Virus record (IMG/VR): IMGVR_UViG_3300045988_092796
Location: 1 to 32,357 of that record
Reading direction: 5' to 3' (one strand)
Origin: a virus
Length of the DNA stretch: 32,357 nt
Below, piece by piece: positions 16,002 to 32,272 of this stretch. The stretch's first letter is position 1. Each line of letters begins with the position of its first letter. The notes below the pieces were generated by a model. That model saw only the letters and a list, made by a program, of their open reading frames with translations, was not told where the DNA came from and ran no database searches. Made by a program: the position numbers and the translations under genes.

Positions 16002-16026
16002 AAAAAAAGCAGTCACAAGACTGCTT
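16002..16026 (-). terminator. Rho-independent terminator immediately after terL
   Basis: Minus strand reads aagcagtc-ttgt-gactgctt followed by ttttttg. Confidence 0.7.
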
Positions 16027-16029
16027 ATT

Positions 16030-17442
16030 TTAATAACTGATTTTTTGCTTTTTCTTAGGCTTAGCCGTAGCACAAGCCCAATGCGCAAGCAAAGCGCTAT
16101 CCATCAATGAAATATCCATGTCGTCAAAGTGCGATCGATAGCCAAAACCACCATTTGAGCCAATATTCCGCTTGTCGCAGTTAGTGGCTACTTTAGACAA
16201 TGATGGTTGACCAGCATGGCAGATGGTCTTCTGGTAAATTCCCTGTTCCCAAAGAGCGTTGGCCACGATGATTTCTTTCACCGTCGGCAGAATCACATTC
16301 TTGATTCTATAGTCCTTCAACTCTTCGTCCAGGATCTTTTGACCACTTGCGCCATCAATGACAATCTGAGCCACATCAGCTTGACGCAAAAATGCAACCA
16401 TCCACTCATTCCCATTACGAACAGATTGACAATCTACTGTCTCAACAAAGAAACGACCATCTTTAGTCCGTGCAGCAATACTCAATGCCACGTTCGTTCC
16501 ATCTTGGCCATACTTAATACCAACAGATAGCTTGCCAGATAATTTTGGAACATCATCCACCTTAAGCTCATTCCACTCCGTCTCAGAAATGGCAGATTTC
16601 TGGTTGTAAGTTGGCCAAAATCCCAAACGTTGGATATTATGGTCCAGCTTATCCTCACCAAGCTCTGCCTCAATCTTACGCTCATTTAAGTGGTAACCCA
16701 TGGATGGATTGGAATTATACCAGGCTTCCACATCGTCGATTTCCTTTTCATCAGAAACAGACCACTCAGCCCAACCAGAATACTTCCCTTTTCCAAAAAG
16801 ACAAGTCTCACGATACTTAGTAAAGACTGTACCGCTTGAAACAGGGGTCGGAGGTGTCCCACACATGATTGTGATAGGATTTTCACTGTCCGTAACCGTG
16901 TATTTCAAAGCAGATTCTTGCTCGGTCGTGTACTCCTGAGCCTCATCAATGATCAGCATGTCAAACCCTTCACCAAGACCGCCATTTGAAGTCCTGGTAC
17001 GAAATTGGACAACACCACCTGTTGAGTAAAGTTCAATTCTCTCCTGCCCTTTCGCACGAATGGAATTGAAATCCTCACCATCCACATATCCCATTTTTTC
17101 AAGGTATCGTTTCACCTTCTCAAATGAAGCATGTGATGTAGAAATTCGGTGAGCTGTATGTAGGATATTCAATCCCTTATGCAGCGCCCAAATTTCAGCT
17201 ATGTAGAGGATTTCGGACTTACCATTACGACGAGGAATAGAGTATCCGAACTTTTGGTGTACCCAAAGCCCATTTTTATCTACCGCCATCAAAGGCAATA
17301 GCAGGTTTTTCTGCCAAGCATAGCAAGAAAGCCCTGTCCGCTCGTAAAGTTCAATCGCTTCTTTAGCTCTTGAATTTTTCTTGACGTATTTTAAAATTAC
17401 CGATTGAGTAGGATTCTGATTGCCAAGTTTCTTCCTTGCCAT
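16030..17442 (-). CDS. terL: Terminase large subunit
   Basis: Walker A PRRNGKSE and Walker B MLIIDEAQE. The 470-aa size is typical. Confidence 0.85.
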   Translation of the reverse strand: MARKKLGNQNPTQSVILKYVKKNSRAKEAIELYERTGLSCYAWQKNLLLPLMAVDKNGLWVHQKFGYSIPRRNGKSEILYIAEIWALHKGLNILHTAHRISTSHASFEKVKRYLEKMGYVDGEDFNSIRAKGQERIELYSTGGVVQFRTRTSNGGLGEGFDMLIIDEAQEYTTEQESALKYTVTDSENPITIMCGTPPTPVSSGTVFTKYRETCLFGKGKYSGWAEWSVSDEKEIDDVEAWYNSNPSMGYHLNERKIEAELGEDKLDHNIQRLGFWPTYNQKSAISETEWNELKVDDVPKLSGKLSVGIKYGQDGTNVALSIAARTKDGRFFVETVDCQSVRNGNEWMVAFLRQADVAQIVIDGASGQKILDEELKDYRIKNVILPTVKEIIVANALWEQGIYQKTICHAGQPSLSKVATNCDKRNIGSNGGFGYRSHFDDMDISLMDSALLAHWACATAKPKKKQKISY

Positions 17443-17495
17443 TCTAATTTCCTTTCAATCGTCATTGCATGATAACCCTCTCGCTGGGAGATATC

Positions 17496-17507
17496 GGATC
17501 ACCTCCT
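17496..17507 (-). other. 12-nt perfect anti-SD complement (AGGAGGTGATCC on the minus strand) with no canonical start codon at SD distance
   Basis: Plus strand reads ggatcacctcct, identical to the 16S rRNA 3' tail sequence. Lies in the terL 5' leader, 54 nt upstream of the terL ATG. Confidence 0.4.
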
Positions 17508-17517
17508 AATCTAAACC

Positions 17518-17544
17518 ACAATAAAAGCACTCTTTCGAGTGCTT
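17518..17544 (-). terminator. Rho-independent terminator after the small ORF that follows the MuF gene
   Basis: Minus strand reads aagcactc-gaaa-gagtgctt followed by ttattg. Confidence 0.6.
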
Positions 17545-17551
17545 AAAATTA

Positions 17552-17791
17552 CTATTTTCGGTCTGAAAAAAACTCAGCCCAAAATGGATTTTCTTTATCA
17601 AAGATTTCAACCTCTTCTAAAGTCATATTATGAGGATAATCTTCAAAAAGGTTATAGAACTTTTTCTTATCAAATGTAAACAACATCAATCCTCTAGCAA
17701 ACCATGACGTATCAACCCACCAAATTTTATCATCATCATTTTCTTTATAACAATATTCGGACCAATTTACTTCTTCATAATCACTTTTCAT
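17552..17791 (-). CDS. 79-aa acidic, Trp-rich protein; putative immunity/partner of the MuF C-terminal domain
   Basis: The ATG overlaps the last 11 nt of the MuF gene, suggesting translational coupling. No recognisable family. Confidence 0.5.
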   Translation of the reverse strand: MKSDYEEVNWSEYCYKENDDDKIWWVDTSWFARGLMLFTFDKKKFYNLFEDYPHNMTLEEVEIFDKENPFWAEFFSDRK

Positions 17792-19187
17792 GGCCTTCAA
17801 TTCCTTTCATTTGCTTAGAACCAGCTGTGTTAATGAAGCTCAATAAATTATGGAACTCAGGATTATCTTTCAATGAATTTGAATCGATGATATAACTATC
17901 CACTTCATATTTTCCATGTCTGGTACTATGTGTTTTTTTACACTTGAATCTTTCTTTCAGAACAACATTATCTAATGGTTTAAACCCGTTTGATATTCTG
18001 GATTGCAACTCCAAATATTCAAAACGTCCTTCATTTTTTCTTATAACAGCCGCATGCCTACCTGTTGCCAAGTAATATTCATTCCCATCTTCTACCTTTT
18101 TCAACAATTCTCTGACTGCAGTAAAGTCATTCGTGTTTTTAACGACATGCATTTTAACACCAGGAAGATTTCCTATCATTTGGATTCTACTATCTCTAGA
18201 GAAGAAGTCACAGCTTTTACCTCCTCGAAAATCTAAAACAGTATAACCGCCTTTATTTCCAATATACGCAAATGCTGCTGACGAACATGACCCTTTTGTT
18301 TTATCACCGCCACTAACAGCAGTGATGATTTGTTCCTCAGTTAGTTTTTTACGACTTTTTTTGATAGGATTTGAGGAAATTCCTTCTTGAAGCGCAAGTT
18401 TTCTCACTTCGCTCATTTGAGATTTTCCATTGATATTTTTTCTTGCTTCTATCTTATCACTTTCATCTGTTTTTCTCCAAATTTTGCTCCAAATGTCTTT
18501 AACTTTCCCGCTTTTTGGGTCATAGTCAACAATACAACGACAATGTTGATGCCTCCTATAAACATCTCTTGGAACTCTTGGATATTTATAGCTACCTTGT
18601 ACTTCTTGACACCAATCACAGCAATGAAAATAAGATTTTCTAACAATTTCAGGTTGTAATCCAGATTTGTAATGGAACTCCGCATTTTTTTGAATACTAT
18701 CATCAATGATAGATTGAGAAAAATTAACGATAGGCTCACCAAACAACCAACTGACATCTTCAAATTTTTCTTCAGATGCCAATCGATTAACAATGCCAGC
18801 AATTCTATCCTGATTCAATTCAGGAACTTGCACTTTCAAACTGATTTTTGCATCTGTATTCAGTTTCTTCTGTACATCTCTCGTATAACCGCTTATTATC
18901 TCATAATTACGCCCTAGAACGTCCGATAACAACCGTTGAGCGATATTGTAATACATTTTTCCATCTGGCAATTTATCAGCGATTAAAGAAGCTCCTAGAG
19001 CCTTAGAAAGAATTTCTCCGACCTCAATAGCAAACTCATTTGCTGTTTTGTAGGTTGCTTTTTTAGCTTCCAACGTGGCAAAAGCATTTCTGACGATCTC
19101 ACTTTTCCCATAATCTCTCTCGAATCTCTCTTGAACTTCTTGAAGAATAGCAGGTAAAACATCATGTTCCATCTGATTCACCTTCAT
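17781..19187 (-). CDS. MuF/SPP1 gp7-like head morphogenesis protein fused to an unassigned C-terminal domain of about 190 aa (Cys301/His378 candidate catalytic pair)
   Basis: MuF signature HCCDWCQEVQGSYKYP...RRHQHCRC at residues 188-218. It is followed by a Lys-rich linker and an extra domain (GSCSSAAFAYIGNKGG ... ATGRHAAVIRK). An alternative start at 19172 has a better SD. Confidence 0.75.
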   Translation of the reverse strand: MKVNQMEHDVLPAILQEVQERFERDYGKSEIVRNAFATLEAKKATYKTANEFAIEVGEILSKALGASLIADKLPDGKMYYNIAQRLLSDVLGRNYEIISGYTRDVQKKLNTDAKISLKVQVPELNQDRIAGIVNRLASEEKFEDVSWLFGEPIVNFSQSIIDDSIQKNAEFHYKSGLQPEIVRKSYFHCCDWCQEVQGSYKYPRVPRDVYRRHQHCRCIVDYDPKSGKVKDIWSKIWRKTDESDKIEARKNINGKSQMSEVRKLALQEGISSNPIKKSRKKLTEEQIITAVSGGDKTKGSCSSAAFAYIGNKGGYTVLDFRGGKSCDFFSRDSRIQMIGNLPGVKMHVVKNTNDFTAVRELLKKVEDGNEYYLATGRHAAVIRKNEGRFEYLELQSRISNGFKPLDNVVLKERFKCKKTHSTRHGKYEVDSYIIDSNSLKDNPEFHNLLSFINTAGSKQMKGIEGHEK

Positions 19188-20430
19188 TCACAATAGGCAC
19201 AGCAGACATATCACCTGCAATTCCTGTAAGATCACGAATGGTTTCAGCGTTAATATAACCAGGTAATGCCTGATTCAATTTCAGGGCACCATCGCCAACC
19301 ATGGTCATCATATTAGCATCTGCTTCAAATAATGGTTCCCATTTAACTGTTGTTCTCACAAATTCACTTCTTACGTAATGAAATTCATCACGCAAACAAG
19401 CAGCAACATAAGCAACATTTAAAAATCCAGCGCCTAAAGACCTTTGTGCCTTCCGTCCTGCCAAGCGCAAATTCTCATGACTAGCCTTGATAGCTTCAAC
19501 TGATGATGGATTGTCTGACACAAACCCTAAATCATCTAATGTCAAGCCCATTTCGCCAGCAAATCCAGCAGCAGCTGTTCTTAGCTGTTCGGTAAAAGGA
19601 GACATGCTGGCAGTGCTAAACTGGCCAACGTTTGGCTTTTCCCCATTATCACTAGCCGAAATCGTCAACAGGCTTGATACAGTCGCTTGCCATTTTTCCA
19701 AAGGCTCTGCATCAGGATCCAGTCCAAGAATATACTTTTGAGGCCATGAGTAGAACTCTGCCGTAATATCCGCCCGTTCCAAAGTACGCTTAGCATATTT
19801 TTGATAATACATGCCAGCCCTCGTGATACGACTACGGCCAAACGGTCTTACCGCATCAGGCCGATGAATCACAGGAACCAGCAGTGGAATATTCGTTGGA
19901 TTGCTGATCGAGTAGGTTTGACCATCTTTCGGGATGAAATGGGTTGCATTTGGCTCAAAGTAAGCCTCTAAAGTTGCCCGACCATAATCGTCCCTAGCCA
20001 ATACCGCATAACCTTCAACAAGCAATCCAGTAATAGGATCAATTACTCCAGTCGCATTACTCGATTCAATGACTTGTAATCTCACCTCATCATCTTCGTC
20101 TTTCGAAATATAGATAAAACTACACGATCCAATCAGTGCTGATAGAATAGTGCTATCAAAGAAGATATCAGGATTGTTCCGATTGAAGATTTCCATAACT
20201 TCAAAATCATCATTGGCAAATTCTCTAAAAATCAAACGATCTGCAAGACTATCTACTCCTTTTGCAGCCCAACCCAAAGTGGACCGATACTGCGCCCTGA
20301 TATTTGGAGGAATCGTTATTCCTATCGACGCTTCATAATATTTCATGGCGTAATGCTTGTATCTCAGATTAACTCTTAACCTACAAGATTCAAGTTTTCT
20401 TCTCAGATAGTCAATCCCTCTTAATTCCAA
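19162..20430 (-). CDS. Portal protein, SPP1 gp6-like
   Basis: Size and motifs (RPFGRSRIT) fit. Followed by the MuF gene. Start chosen at the TTG preceded by aaaggagactgaa; the track's longer N-terminus has no SD. Confidence 0.75.
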   Translation of the reverse strand: MELRGIDYLRRKLESCRLRVNLRYKHYAMKYYEASIGITIPPNIRAQYRSTLGWAAKGVDSLADRLIFREFANDDFEVMEIFNRNNPDIFFDSTILSALIGSCSFIYISKDEDDEVRLQVIESSNATGVIDPITGLLVEGYAVLARDDYGRATLEAYFEPNATHFIPKDGQTYSISNPTNIPLLVPVIHRPDAVRPFGRSRITRAGMYYQKYAKRTLERADITAEFYSWPQKYILGLDPDAEPLEKWQATVSSLLTISASDNGEKPNVGQFSTASMSPFTEQLRTAAAGFAGEMGLTLDDLGFVSDNPSSVEAIKASHENLRLAGRKAQRSLGAGFLNVAYVAACLRDEFHYVRSEFVRTTVKWEPLFEADANMMTMVGDGALKLNQALPGYINAETIRDLTGIAGDMSAVPIVNEGESDGT

Positions 20431-20454
20431 TTCAGTCTCCTTTCGTCTTGAGAT

Positions 20455-20533
20455 TTGGCGCGAGAAAAAATGTACAGTGACGGCGTGAAGCTCGGCCGAG
20501 CCTCTGGGGAGGGGGTAACCCCCCACCTTTGGC
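20455..20533. other. GC-rich island with a 12-bp palindrome gctcggccgagc (20490-20501) and a G5-taa-C6 hairpin (20511-20524); cos/pac candidate
   Basis: Read directly. It contrasts sharply with the flanking AT-rich DNA and lies between the HNH and portal genes. Confidence 0.4.
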
Positions 20534-20669
20534 AATTTTAAAAAATTTTAAAATTTTTATTTTTTCTCAAAAATCTTCAAAATTATTATTTTTTTACTTT
20601 TTTAAAAAAATTACTATTTTTTATTTTTTTAATTATTTCTATGATTTTTAAAAATATTTTTAAAATCAT
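20534..20669. repeat. Noncoding block of about 135 bp that is almost pure A/T, with phased A- and T-tracts and a 29-bp near-palindrome (20641-20669)
   Basis: ttttaaaaaattttaaaatttttatttttt... No ORF on either strand. Confidence 0.6.
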
Positions 20670-21008
20670 TTACGATCTGTATTTCGTCCAGTCTCTACTC
20701 TGTGGCAGATTCCTATTCCCAACAACTGTACTGTTGGCTGATCTATCATCTGCATATAACTTATCAGACTTCTGTCTGTTGCATTGCCAATGCGATAACT
20801 GCAAGTTCTTAATATCAGATGGATGACCATTCCTATTAATTGGAATGATGTGATCAATAACTGGACTCAAAGGGTGCGGGTACTTCAATGATTTATCTAC
20901 GGGGAGTCCGCATATTCCACAAGTATTCCTTGTTTTAAGGATAATCTTTTTATTTTTTTCAAAAGCTACTCGATGTGGTCCCGTCCTATCTTGCCTGAGG
21001 TTATTCAT
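20670..21008 (-). CDS. HNH endonuclease (phage packaging-associated type)
   Basis: Motif CGICG...DHIIP...GHP...NLQLSHWQCNRQKSDK. Confidence 0.85.
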   Translation of the reverse strand: MNNLRQDRTGPHRVAFEKNKKIILKTRNTCGICGLPVDKSLKYPHPLSPVIDHIIPINRNGHPSDIKNLQLSHWQCNRQKSDKLYADDRSANSTVVGNRNLPQSRDWTKYRS

Positions 21009-21252: not shown

Positions 21253-21819
21253 CTAATAGCTGAAATTCAACATGCTATTATCTAACTCATCCTGCTTAAA
21301 TCCTATATAACCTAAGGTAATATCTGGTGAAGAATGATTAAACAATTCCATCAATATCCCAACGTTCTGATTTTTTCTATAGTGATGATAACCAAAGGTC
21401 TTTCTCATTGAGTGAGTTCCGATATTGGTAAGACCTGTATGTTCTCCTGCATCTCTTAAAATCTGATAAGCAGCTACCCTGCCAATATGTGTTATCCTCA
21501 AGCCTTCGCTATTTACTTTTTTTCTGGAAGGAAATAGATAATCATAATCTTTCAGATCATTTTCTTTAATATAATGATCAAGGGCTTTTCTTAAGGCTGG
21601 ATTAATAGCGAACCTTTTAGTCTTTCCAGTCTTACGTTCGGTCACTTCTATATGACTTCCCTTCACGCTCTTAACCTTTAAAGGAAGGATGTCGCTAATT
21701 CTCATACCAGAATACAATCCAGTGACCATCAACACATAATCTCGTTCATTCTTATCCTTTAGATAATCCTTCATGCGTTCGATATCATCTGTATCACGGA
21801 TTGGTTCCACTTTTCGCAC
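21253..21819 (-). CDS. Small tyrosine recombinase, catalytic domain only (about 188 aa)
   Basis: Candidate catalytic residues: R in GMRISD, HxxR in THSMRKT, H in FNHSS, Y in TLGYIG. There is no N-terminal core-binding domain. GTG start preceded by ggaggtgaggat. Confidence 0.75.
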   Translation of the reverse strand: MRKVEPIRDTDDIERMKDYLKDKNERDYVLMVTGLYSGMRISDILPLKVKSVKGSHIEVTERKTGKTKRFAINPALRKALDHYIKENDLKDYDYLFPSRKKVNSEGLRITHIGRVAAYQILRDAGEHTGLTNIGTHSMRKTFGYHHYRKNQNVGILMELFNHSSPDITLGYIGFKQDELDNSMLNFSY

Positions 21820-21837
21820 ATCCTCACCTCCAATCAA

Positions 21838-31168: not shown

Positions 31169-32272
31169 ATGATCAAGAAATATAAAAAAGGTGACGGCTT
31201 TGCTTACTATTTTAAAGCATACCATGGGATTGATCCTTTGACTGGTAAGAAGATAGTAACTCTTAGGCGTGGTTTTAAAACTGAGCGTGAAGCTAGACTG
31301 GCTGAAGCTAAGTGTTTAGCTGATTATGAGAAGAAAACCTTTAGAAGCAGAAATACAACTACTACTTTTAATCAGGTATATGAAACCTGGAAAGCGCATT
31401 ATAGAAATACCGTAAAAGAATCAACCTACGTTAGCCAAATTGACAAAGCAGATAGACTTATTATCCCTCATTTTGGAGATAAGCCTATAAATAAAATAAG
31501 TTTGACCATGTGTCAAACTCAGGTTAATAAATGGGCTGAAGAATATAAACGATTTTTTGGAATTATCAGCATAACTAATCAGATTTTTGATTATGCAATA
31601 TCTATGGAATTGATTGATAGCAATCCAATGAAAAAGACACTGAAGCCTAAACGACAAAAAAATAATACAGATGAACTTGAAAAGTTCTACAACAAAGAAG
31701 AACTTAAGGAATTCTTTAAAATCGTTAAAGGCTTCGACGATAATGAAATGCTGACGTATTTTAGATTACTAGCTTTTACTGGAATGCGAAAGAATGAAAT
31801 TAGCGCTCTAAGATGGTCTGATATCGATTTTAAAAAAGGACAGATTACTGTCAATCAAACCTTGGCCAAGGGTGAAGATAATAAACTTATCTTTCAGACT
31901 CCAAAGACAAAAAAGAGTGCCCGAACAATTACCCTCGATTCAAAAACAATCAAGGTTTTAAAAGATTGGCACAAGTATAGTACAAAAGGACTTCTTTTTA
32001 AAAATGAGAATGGAGAACCTAAGAGTGTTGTCCATGTCAACAATATGTTGAACAGAATCTGGAGAAAGTATCCTGATTTTAAACGTATCACCCCACACGG
32101 ATTCAGACACACCCACTGCTCCCTATTGTTCGAGGCTGGAGCAACTATTAAAGAGGTTCAGGAACGATTAGGGCATGAAAACATACAAACAACGATGGAC
32201 ATATATGCTCATGTTACCCAAAAAGCAAAAAATGAGGTTGCTGACAAATTCGCTTCATACATTGGTTTTTAA
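31169..32272 (+). CDS. int: Tyrosine integrase
   Basis: Full-length (367 aa), with RKNEISALRW, HGFRHTH and LGHENIQTTMDIYAHV motifs. Adjacent to the att core. Confidence 0.95.
   Translation: MIKKYKKGDGFAYYFKAYHGIDPLTGKKIVTLRRGFKTEREARLAEAKCLADYEKKTFRSRNTTTTFNQVYETWKAHYRNTVKESTYVSQIDKADRLIIPHFGDKPINKISLTMCQTQVNKWAEEYKRFFGIISITNQIFDYAISMELIDSNPMKKTLKPKRQKNNTDELEKFYNKEELKEFFKIVKGFDDNEMLTYFRLLAFTGMRKNEISALRWSDIDFKKGQITVNQTLAKGEDNKLIFQTPKTKKSARTITLDSKTIKVLKDWHKYSTKGLLFKNENGEPKSVVHVNNMLNRIWRKYPDFKRITPHGFRHTHCSLLFEAGATIKEVQERLGHENIQTTMDIYAHVTQKAKNEVADKFASYIGF

Follow-up and report, generated by a model that had tools for sequence, protein, structure and literature searches.

The virus record IMGVR_UViG_3300045988_092796 of IMG/VR encodes a minor head protein of 468 amino acids that joins an N-terminal MuF3 domain to a C-terminal domain of the papain-fold class, and its gene is followed by a small open reading frame (ORF) of Pfam family DUF7675. 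The stretch analysed, called the window below, is positions 1 to 32,357 (32,357 nucleotides) of that record. We find that the C-terminal domain carries invariant residues of catalytic type, that it is exchanged as a cassette on a conserved N-terminus, that it is strictly paired with DUF7675 and that it resides in a prophage. The explanation we favour, with a probability of roughly 0.6, is that the domain is an effector that is packaged in the capsid and co-injected with the DNA, and that DUF7675 is its inhibitor or immunity protein. The class of system is already known; the domain is an uncatalogued family within it.

The locus had been picked out in a prediction made from the letters of the window (the original prediction), which described a MuF-like ORF with an extra Cys/His domain, an overlapping small ORF and a terminator. 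The coordinates of both genes were borne out by an ORF check and a terminator-like hairpin was found. The residue positions given for CCDWC, HCRC, the Lys-rich linker, Cys301 and His378 proved correct, and the start coordinate of 18347 given there is the first base of codon 281.

Fold and predicted active site of the C-terminal domain

The core of the domain comprises residues 293-468 (17781..18311 with the stop codon, minus strand), as seen in an AlphaFold (AF2) model and by Foldseek. The model covers residues 268-468, was built from an 83-sequence alignment of domain relatives, and has a predicted local distance difference test score (pLDDT) of 91.3 and a predicted template modelling score (pTM) of 0.90. 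A Foldseek search against the PDB, one of the structure searches that the original prediction had proposed, gave weak scores (best E 2.6e-3, template modelling (TM) scores 0.18-0.38), and all of the top 20 matches were papain-fold thiol enzymes. The folds matched were those of phytochelatin synthase, UfSP, lymphostatin, SpvD, staphopain, the herpesvirus M48 deubiquitinase (M48 USP), Josephin and MINDY. Among structures in BFVD the model matched a homologous 'minor capsid component' with a TM score of 0.92; the best non-homologous match, second overall, was a phage protein annotated 'Papain fold toxin 1, glutamine deamidase' (E 1.4e-4, TMq 0.46, probability 1.0), and further neighbours were annotated 'capsid maturation protease (and MuF-like fusion)'. 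A role as a peptidoglycan hydrolase of the CHAP or NlpC/P60 type was rejected, as neither appeared among the fold matches.

The predicted nucleophile is Cys301 (codon at 18285..18287, minus strand), which lies in the motif GGDxTxGSCSS (here GGDKTKGSCSS) at the N-terminus of a helix, and the predicted general base is His378 (18054..18056, minus strand), which lies in ATGRH at the start of a beta-strand. A third catalytic or orienting residue is predicted in the ExQ motif formed by Glu393, Leu394 and Gln395 (18003..18011, minus strand). In model numbering Cys301 opens helix 33-45, His378 opens strand 111-118, and the Glu and Gln come just after strand 121-126; Glu393 and Gln395 sit 15-17 residues past His378, on the next strand. 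In papain, Asn175 follows His159 with comparable spacing, and the order and spacing of the papain catalytic residues are matched here. Across 80 diverse full-length relatives D295, T297, G299, S300, C301, D319, R321, S325, H378, E393, Q395, R413, F414, N453 and T454 are invariant. Together, the model, the 20 papain-fold PDB matches and the invariant Cys, His, Glu and Gln support the papain-like Cys/His enzyme suggested in the original prediction, and we predict that the domain belongs to an uncatalogued family of papain-fold thiol enzymes and that Cys301, His378 and Glu393 carry out catalysis. Peptidase, isopeptidase and glutamine deamidase activities are all possible.

Sequence searches gave the domain no name. 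It had no match in Pfam, NCBIfam, PADLOC or PDB-sequence searches, and comparison of the full protein and of the 83-sequence profile with PDB sequences returned noise (helix-turn-helix regulators, ATP synthase b). Nor did any protease family of Pfam or NCBIfam match, as homology to a prohead protease would have it. This agrees with the earlier statement that the domain could not be placed in a named toxin family; the nearest named one is Tox-PL1, which is considered below.

The protein ends in a tail of fixed length, (F/Y)INTxxxxQxKGxxGxx(K/R)-COOH (residues 451-468; 17784..17837, minus strand), which is conserved in 31 of 31 diverse relatives inspected. Its pLDDT is low (55-60) and it is predicted to be disordered. 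The tail is conserved both where DUF7675 overlaps the stop codon and where DUF7675 is convergent on the opposite strand, and therefore it does not merely reflect a ribosome-binding-site constraint. Its possible roles are those of a pseudo-substrate, of a peptide that binds the partner, or of a signal for packaging.

The domain is exchanged on a conserved MuF3 N-terminus

The gene that carries the domain (17781..19187, minus strand) matches PHROG 7104 over its full length (E 2.9e-249). Residues 1-250 of its product (18438..19187, minus strand), with CCDWC at 189-193 and HQHCRC at 213-218, form a MuF3 domain predicted to target the protein to the capsid and portal. Over residues 6-275 the identity to gp35 of Streptococcus mitis phage SM1 is 66%; the first 250 amino acids of gp35 served as the seed for the MuF3 profile (Jamet et al. 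2017; PMC5576092). The N-terminal part also matches PHROG 2494 'minor head protein' (E 5.5e-132), and in a local hhalign comparison MuF3-type and MuF1-type N-termini matched with 71% probability (E 3.8e-5) and with the C..C...H..CRC motif aligned. The Pfam Phage_Mu_F model (PF04233) did not match the N-terminal part of the window protein, but the other three results justify the MuF label, in the form of MuF3, and with it the morphogenesis domain described in the original prediction.

This domain is followed by a Lys-rich linker (residues 251-292; 18312..18437, minus strand; isoelectric point (pI) 9.8) with KKSRKK at 276-281, and it is here that homology to other MuF3 proteins breaks. Identity to the MuF proteins of SM1 and of Streptococcus suis phage Javan589 stops at about residues 245-275. 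The Javan589 protein is 60% identical up to residue ~252 and unrelated beyond it, and different small ORFs follow; the homology of SM1 gp35 likewise ends at the linker, and a Cys-rich 59-aa ORF follows. At one further locus, L280, the linker is kept through KKLTEEQ (281-287) before a different C-terminus begins, which places a recombination junction near residues 281-287.

We surveyed 63 complete IMG/VR proteins that are 71-99% identical to the first 250 residues of the window protein. The papain-like domain is present in 38, and the remaining 25 carry at least six other C-termini, among them two HExxH types and the SM1 nuclease type. At least six alternatives on such similar N-termini support the polymorphic-toxin-like reading of the cassette. 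Moreover, SM1, Javan589 and the 25 IMG/VR loci, sister phages whose portal, MuF N-terminus, terminase, scaffold and capsid genes are the same, have other cassettes in place of the domain, which implies that the domain is not needed for morphogenesis.

DUF7675 is strictly paired with the domain

The small ORF (17552..17791, minus strand) encodes 79 amino acids from its ATG, or 82 from an alternative TTG start (17552-17800, minus strand). The ATG start overlaps the MuF stop codon by exactly 11 nt (ATGAAAAGTGA), and relatives are annotated with the same start. The product matches Pfam PF24723 (DUF7675) over model positions 1-65 of 65 with E 4.4e-32 and 110.2 bits, far above the cut-off of 27, and so the ORF is no chance feature; it also matches PHROG 6473 (E 5e-43). 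It is acidic (pI 4.4; 19 D+E against 10 K+R) and has 5 Trp in its 79 residues, and the terminator-like hairpin beyond it has an 8-bp stem, confirming what had been noted about composition, overlap and terminator. The C-terminal domain is basic (pI 9.4), and the opposite charges together with the 11-nt overlap fit a stoichiometric binding pair. We predict that DUF7675 is the cognate inhibitor or immunity protein of the domain.

We looked at 62 ORFs with the domain, from 61 diverse genomes and 38-57% identical to the window, and DUF7675 adjoins the domain in all 62. Of these pairs, 53 are co-directional, usually overlapping or abutting the stop codon, and 9 are convergent. In the convergent pairs (~15%; L180, L211, L236 and others) DUF7675 closes an operon of the opposite strand, its end lying 1-15 nt from the MuF gene's 3' end; the two genes stay neighbours without being co-transcribed. 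In the reverse search, starting from DUF7675, the domain was adjacent in 71 of 80 viral loci, and several of the other nine are truncated contigs. In the MuF3 lineage the domain and DUF7675 occur together at 37 loci and are both absent from 25; the one exception is a contig ending at the gene. Since DUF7675 tracks the domain among near-identical backbones, it moves with the domain and not with the phage. The sequence comparison therefore supports the proposed cognate pairing, with no true discordant loci. A role for DUF7675 as a small terminase or other backbone packaging protein was rejected, as it is absent from sister phages that have the same backbone and other cassettes.

At locus L208 (1522-3725), the order is a MuF1 protein whose different C-terminus bears a JAB/MPN-like motif (HNHPASMPPSAND), an acidic ORF of 46 aa, and DUF7675; the last looks like an orphan partner gene left after displacement of its cassette. 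A Clostridia contig from a metagenome-assembled genome (L121:3179-6008) carries tandem MuF-papain-like genes (472 and 405 aa), each with its own DUF7675 ORF.

Distribution and architectures of the family

An exhaustive search with a profile yielded 1061 cluster representatives (50% identity) at E<=1e-3, 843 of them at E<=1e-30, so the C-terminal domain is no chance feature either. The proteins range from 224 to 1016 aa and the domain is at the extreme C-terminus in 150 of 150 among the matches listed. We typed the N-termini of 80 relatives by Pfam and PHROG scans: 38 are Pfam Phage_Mu_F (MuF1), 9 are Phage_min_cap2 (MuF2), and the others fall to PHROGs annotated 'minor head protein' or 'head morphogenesis'. 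The N-terminus of the Bacteroides toxin Bxa (PHROG 16625) is present in 12 of the 80. No trafficking domain of a secretion system was seen among the 80. The hosts include Streptococcus, Peptoniphilus, Clostridia, Lachnospiraceae, Fusobacterium, Megasphaera, Bacteroidales, Fibrobacter, Treponema, Schaalia and Saccharibacteria, many of them oral or gut bacteria.

Some relatives carry further domains. One protein of 1034 aa (L125:1523-4627) has ATLF (anthrax-lethal-factor-like) and Peptidase_M90-like regions with the papain-like domain last, and appears to be a multi-effector head protein. Among the 80 scanned, one has an ADP-ribosyltransferase domain, one an XkdF-type serine protease domain, and two have inteins. 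Among the GenBank phage records searched, Butyrivibrio virus Ceridwen (MN882553.2, 4462-5148; 39% identity) is the only carrier of the domain outside Streptococcus.

Relation to known MuF toxins and to Tox-PL1

MuF polymorphic toxins of temperate phages were set out by Zhang et al. 2012 (PMC3482391) and Jamet et al. 2017 (PMC5576092). The window resembles their prototype, SM1 gp35, in its N-terminus (66%), its position after the portal gene, a swappable C-terminus, a downstream small ORF and its setting in a temperate streptococcal prophage. The cassettes differ: SM1 has a putative nuclease and a 59-aa Cys-rich ORF, whereas the window has the papain-fold domain and DUF7675. The experimental basis for portal-bound packaging and for ejection with the DNA is SPP1 gp7 (PMC5576092), which also belongs to the MuF superfamily, with an hhalign match that spans the C..C...H..CRC region, but has neither a C-terminal enzyme domain nor a partner ORF.

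MuF-fused cargo is thought to be injected with the phage DNA, and just two of its chemistries, (p)ppApp synthesis and ADP-ribosylation, are characterised to date. The MuF toxins concerned, the (p)ppApp synthetase Apk2 and the ADP-ribosyltransferase Bxa (inhibitor Bsi), are toxic, and small immunity proteins encoded next to them neutralise them (PMC11699363). These toxins share with the window the combination of a MuF-fused enzyme and an adjacent small protein, and differ from it in chemistry. The same study paired a predicted 'glutamine deaminase' MuF homologue, WP_139147237.1, with the small ORF HMPREF2794_0665, which AlphaFold3 placed in its active site (PMC11699363). Since 12 of 80 relatives have Bxa-type N-termini, this 'glutamine deaminase' group may be the present family.

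Tox-PL1 (PF15644), whose signature is NC-H-DxQ, has been reported fused to MuF (PMC3482391). The present domain is similar in its papain-like fold, its C-terminal position on MuF and its acidic-x-Gln element (SC-H-ExQ as against NC-H-DxQ); it differs in having Ser, not Asn, before the Cys. The partner of Tox-PL1 is Imm35, whereas the small ORF of the window matches only PF24723 DUF7675. Tox-PL1 also occurs on proteins of type VI and type VII secretion systems (T6SS, T7SS) and on RHS proteins, on none of which the present family was seen among the 80 relatives scanned. PF15644 gave no listed match at E<=1 with the full protein or at E<=10 with the domain alone. It was also not among the 25 most-matched of the 85 families matched by 83 relatives at E<=10, so that a weak match in a few relatives is possible. 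With no listed match, a partial signature and a different partner, we do not file the domain under Tox-PL1.

The original prediction had placed the pair in the MuF toxin/immunity class and had suggested that its cargo might be of a new type. The first part stands insofar as the anatomy fits, that is, N-terminus, gene position, swappable C-terminus and paired ORF. The second was too strong, because papain-fold Tox-PL1 toxins on MuF were described in 2012 (PMC3482391) and the MuF-'glutamine deaminase' pair was modelled in 2024 (PMC11699363). What is gained is a fold class and a C301/H378/E393 catalytic hypothesis for an abundant domain (1061 clusters at 50% identity) that has no family model, and a first functional hypothesis, with comparative-genomic support, for Pfam DUF7675, namely that it is a cognate inhibitor or immunity protein. 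Annotation of hundreds of prophages, pneumococcal ones included, would improve.

A probable capsid-delivered enzyme and its predicted inhibitor

By homology to SPP1 gp7, the MuF3 domain would bring the protein, in a few copies, to the portal inside the capsid, and these copies would leave with the DNA at infection. The exchangeable C-terminal domain would then act as a papain-fold thiol enzyme, with Cys301 as nucleophile, His378 as base, Glu393 as orienting acid and Gln395 nearby, and would probably act by cleavage or deamidation on a protein in the cytoplasm of the cell just infected. By eye, the partner, which begins MKSDYEEVNW, shows no evident signal sequence at its N-terminus, and this points to a target in the cytoplasm. 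Through translational coupling, DUF7675 would be made in roughly equal amounts to the MuF protein. The acidic DUF7675 is predicted to bind the basic enzyme domain and to block its activity in the producing cell, and DUF7675 supplied by a prophage or by an orphan gene may protect a cell against incoming enzyme.

Several observations weigh against this explanation. The resemblance of the domain to solved papain-fold enzymes is weak (Foldseek best E 2.6e-3, TM <= 0.38). DUF7675, whose AF2 model has a pLDDT of 90.2, found no credible fold match in the PDB (Foldseek best E 2.0) in the other structure search that had been proposed. In the sample of 80 scanned, the domain is confined to phage head proteins, and yet ~75% of MuF toxin domains are common to other toxin systems (PMC5576092). 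DUF7675 is found without the domain at L200, L230 and L233, and at L208 behind the different MuF C-terminus. It has 18 invariant positions in ~70 residues and is more conserved than the domain, with a mean pairwise identity of 53.6% as against 46.2% and a higher value in 80% of pairs; for a protein to outconserve its enzyme in this way is unusual for immunity proteins in an arms race. Finally, the conserved fixed-length tail is ill-suited to a simple toxin/immunity picture.

Some of these observations would be accommodated if DUF7675 were not an inhibitor but an obligate partner of the enzyme, such as a chaperone, an activating subunit, a packaging adaptor or a substrate, the pair then being a conserved infection factor. 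The unusual conservation of DUF7675 with its 18 invariant positions, its strict co-occurrence with the domain, the gene overlap, which suggests stoichiometric co-translation, and the lack of fold similarity to known immunity proteins are all in line with this. We nevertheless regard it as unlikely. The ~15% of pairs that are convergent indicate that DUF7675 can be expressed apart from the late operon, which suits a protective factor better than a stoichiometric subunit, and orphan copies without the enzyme are typical of immunity genes. In addition, both MuF toxins characterised so far are held in check by a small inhibitory protein encoded alongside (PMC11699363).

A similarly low probability attaches to a role in processing, in which the domain would be a releasing or maturation peptidase that cuts MuF itself, for instance in the Lys-rich linker, or other head proteins, with DUF7675 timing or restraining it. 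Such a role was proposed by Zhang et al. for Tox-PL1 fused to MuF (PMC3482391). It is consistent with the restriction of the domain to phage head proteins among the 80 scanned and with the 'capsid maturation protease (and MuF-like fusion)' annotations of BFVD neighbours. The tail of fixed length could be a pseudo-substrate, and the toxin-like domains upstream in some relatives (ATLF/M90 in L125, ADP-ribosyltransferase in one of 80) could need release. Most family members, however, have no other cargo to release, and sister phages with the same head module (SM1, Javan589, 25 IMG/VR loci) do without the domain. Prohead proteases are not known to have a dedicated inhibitor gene. Releasing peptidases of polymorphic toxins, moreover, are usually internal and not at the extreme C-terminus (PMC3482391).

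Slightly less probable, in our judgement, is that the enzyme is not a growth-inhibiting toxin of the classical kind. It would then be a conserved capsid-delivered enzyme restricted to phage MuF proteins, active in the first minute of infection, that may disarm host defence or reprogram the cell, and DUF7675 would be a strongly conserved safety catch and superinfection-exclusion factor. Deconjugase, protease and deamidase activities are possible for such an enzyme, and the nearest structural neighbours include UFM1- and ubiquitin-specific proteases. If this were so, DUF7675 in a resident prophage or as an orphan gene would exclude phages that depend on the enzyme.

It is very improbable that the extension lacks catalytic function and serves as a structural or decorating part of the head, with structural Cys and His: public annotations do give just 'hypothetical', 'minor capsid protein' or 'head morphogenesis', but the Cys at the helix N-terminus in the model, the His and the Glu-x-Gln are invariant across phyla in canonical papain-fold order and spacing, the domain is dispensable and swapped for metallopeptidase-like and nuclease-type cassettes in sister phages, and a dedicated small partner gene adjoins it (62/62 loci).

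Gene order and prophage context

All genes in the examined part of the window are on the minus strand. Along that strand the order is portal homologue, 468-aa MuF-like ORF, small ORF, hairpin terminator, large terminase, and then a DUF4355 scaffold protein and the major capsid protein. The portal gene (19162..20535, minus strand) lies directly upstream and overlaps the start of the MuF gene; its homologues are the portal protein of Javan242 and a Phage_prot_Gp6 domain protein of phiARI0285-3. The large terminase gene (16030..17442, minus strand; PHROG 9 'terminase large subunit', E 1.1e-83) lies directly downstream of the cassette and forms a conserved flank, and immediately past the cassette, at 17400-17512, SM1 and the window are 93.8% identical. 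At the DNA level the region shares 96% identity with the Streptococcus gordonii prophages Javan242/Javan240 and ~78% with a group of pneumococcal prophages. A full-length integrase gene at 31169-32272 indicates that the element is temperate, a prophage.

The two-gene cassette is closed by the terminator-like hairpin (17525..17544, minus strand), which lies 7 nt past the stop codon of the small ORF and combines an 8-bp stem, with 4 GC pairs, and a T-rich TTATTG tail. A second terminator-like hairpin (16007-16026, minus strand) brackets the large terminase gene together with the first, within what would be expected to be a single late operon. The two stems are near-identical, AAGCAGTC...GACTGCTT and AAGCACTC...GAGTGCTT. 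The position of the terminase downstream of portal and MuF is unusual; SM1 has its cos site upstream of the portal gene. Two minus-strand ORFs directly ahead of the portal gene, at 20670-21008 and 21253-21837, are an HNH endonuclease (PF01844, E 5e-11) and an integrase-family ORF. The integrase-family ORF is short (194 aa), is distinct from the full-length integrase, and is annotated in Javan242 as a site-specific recombinase.

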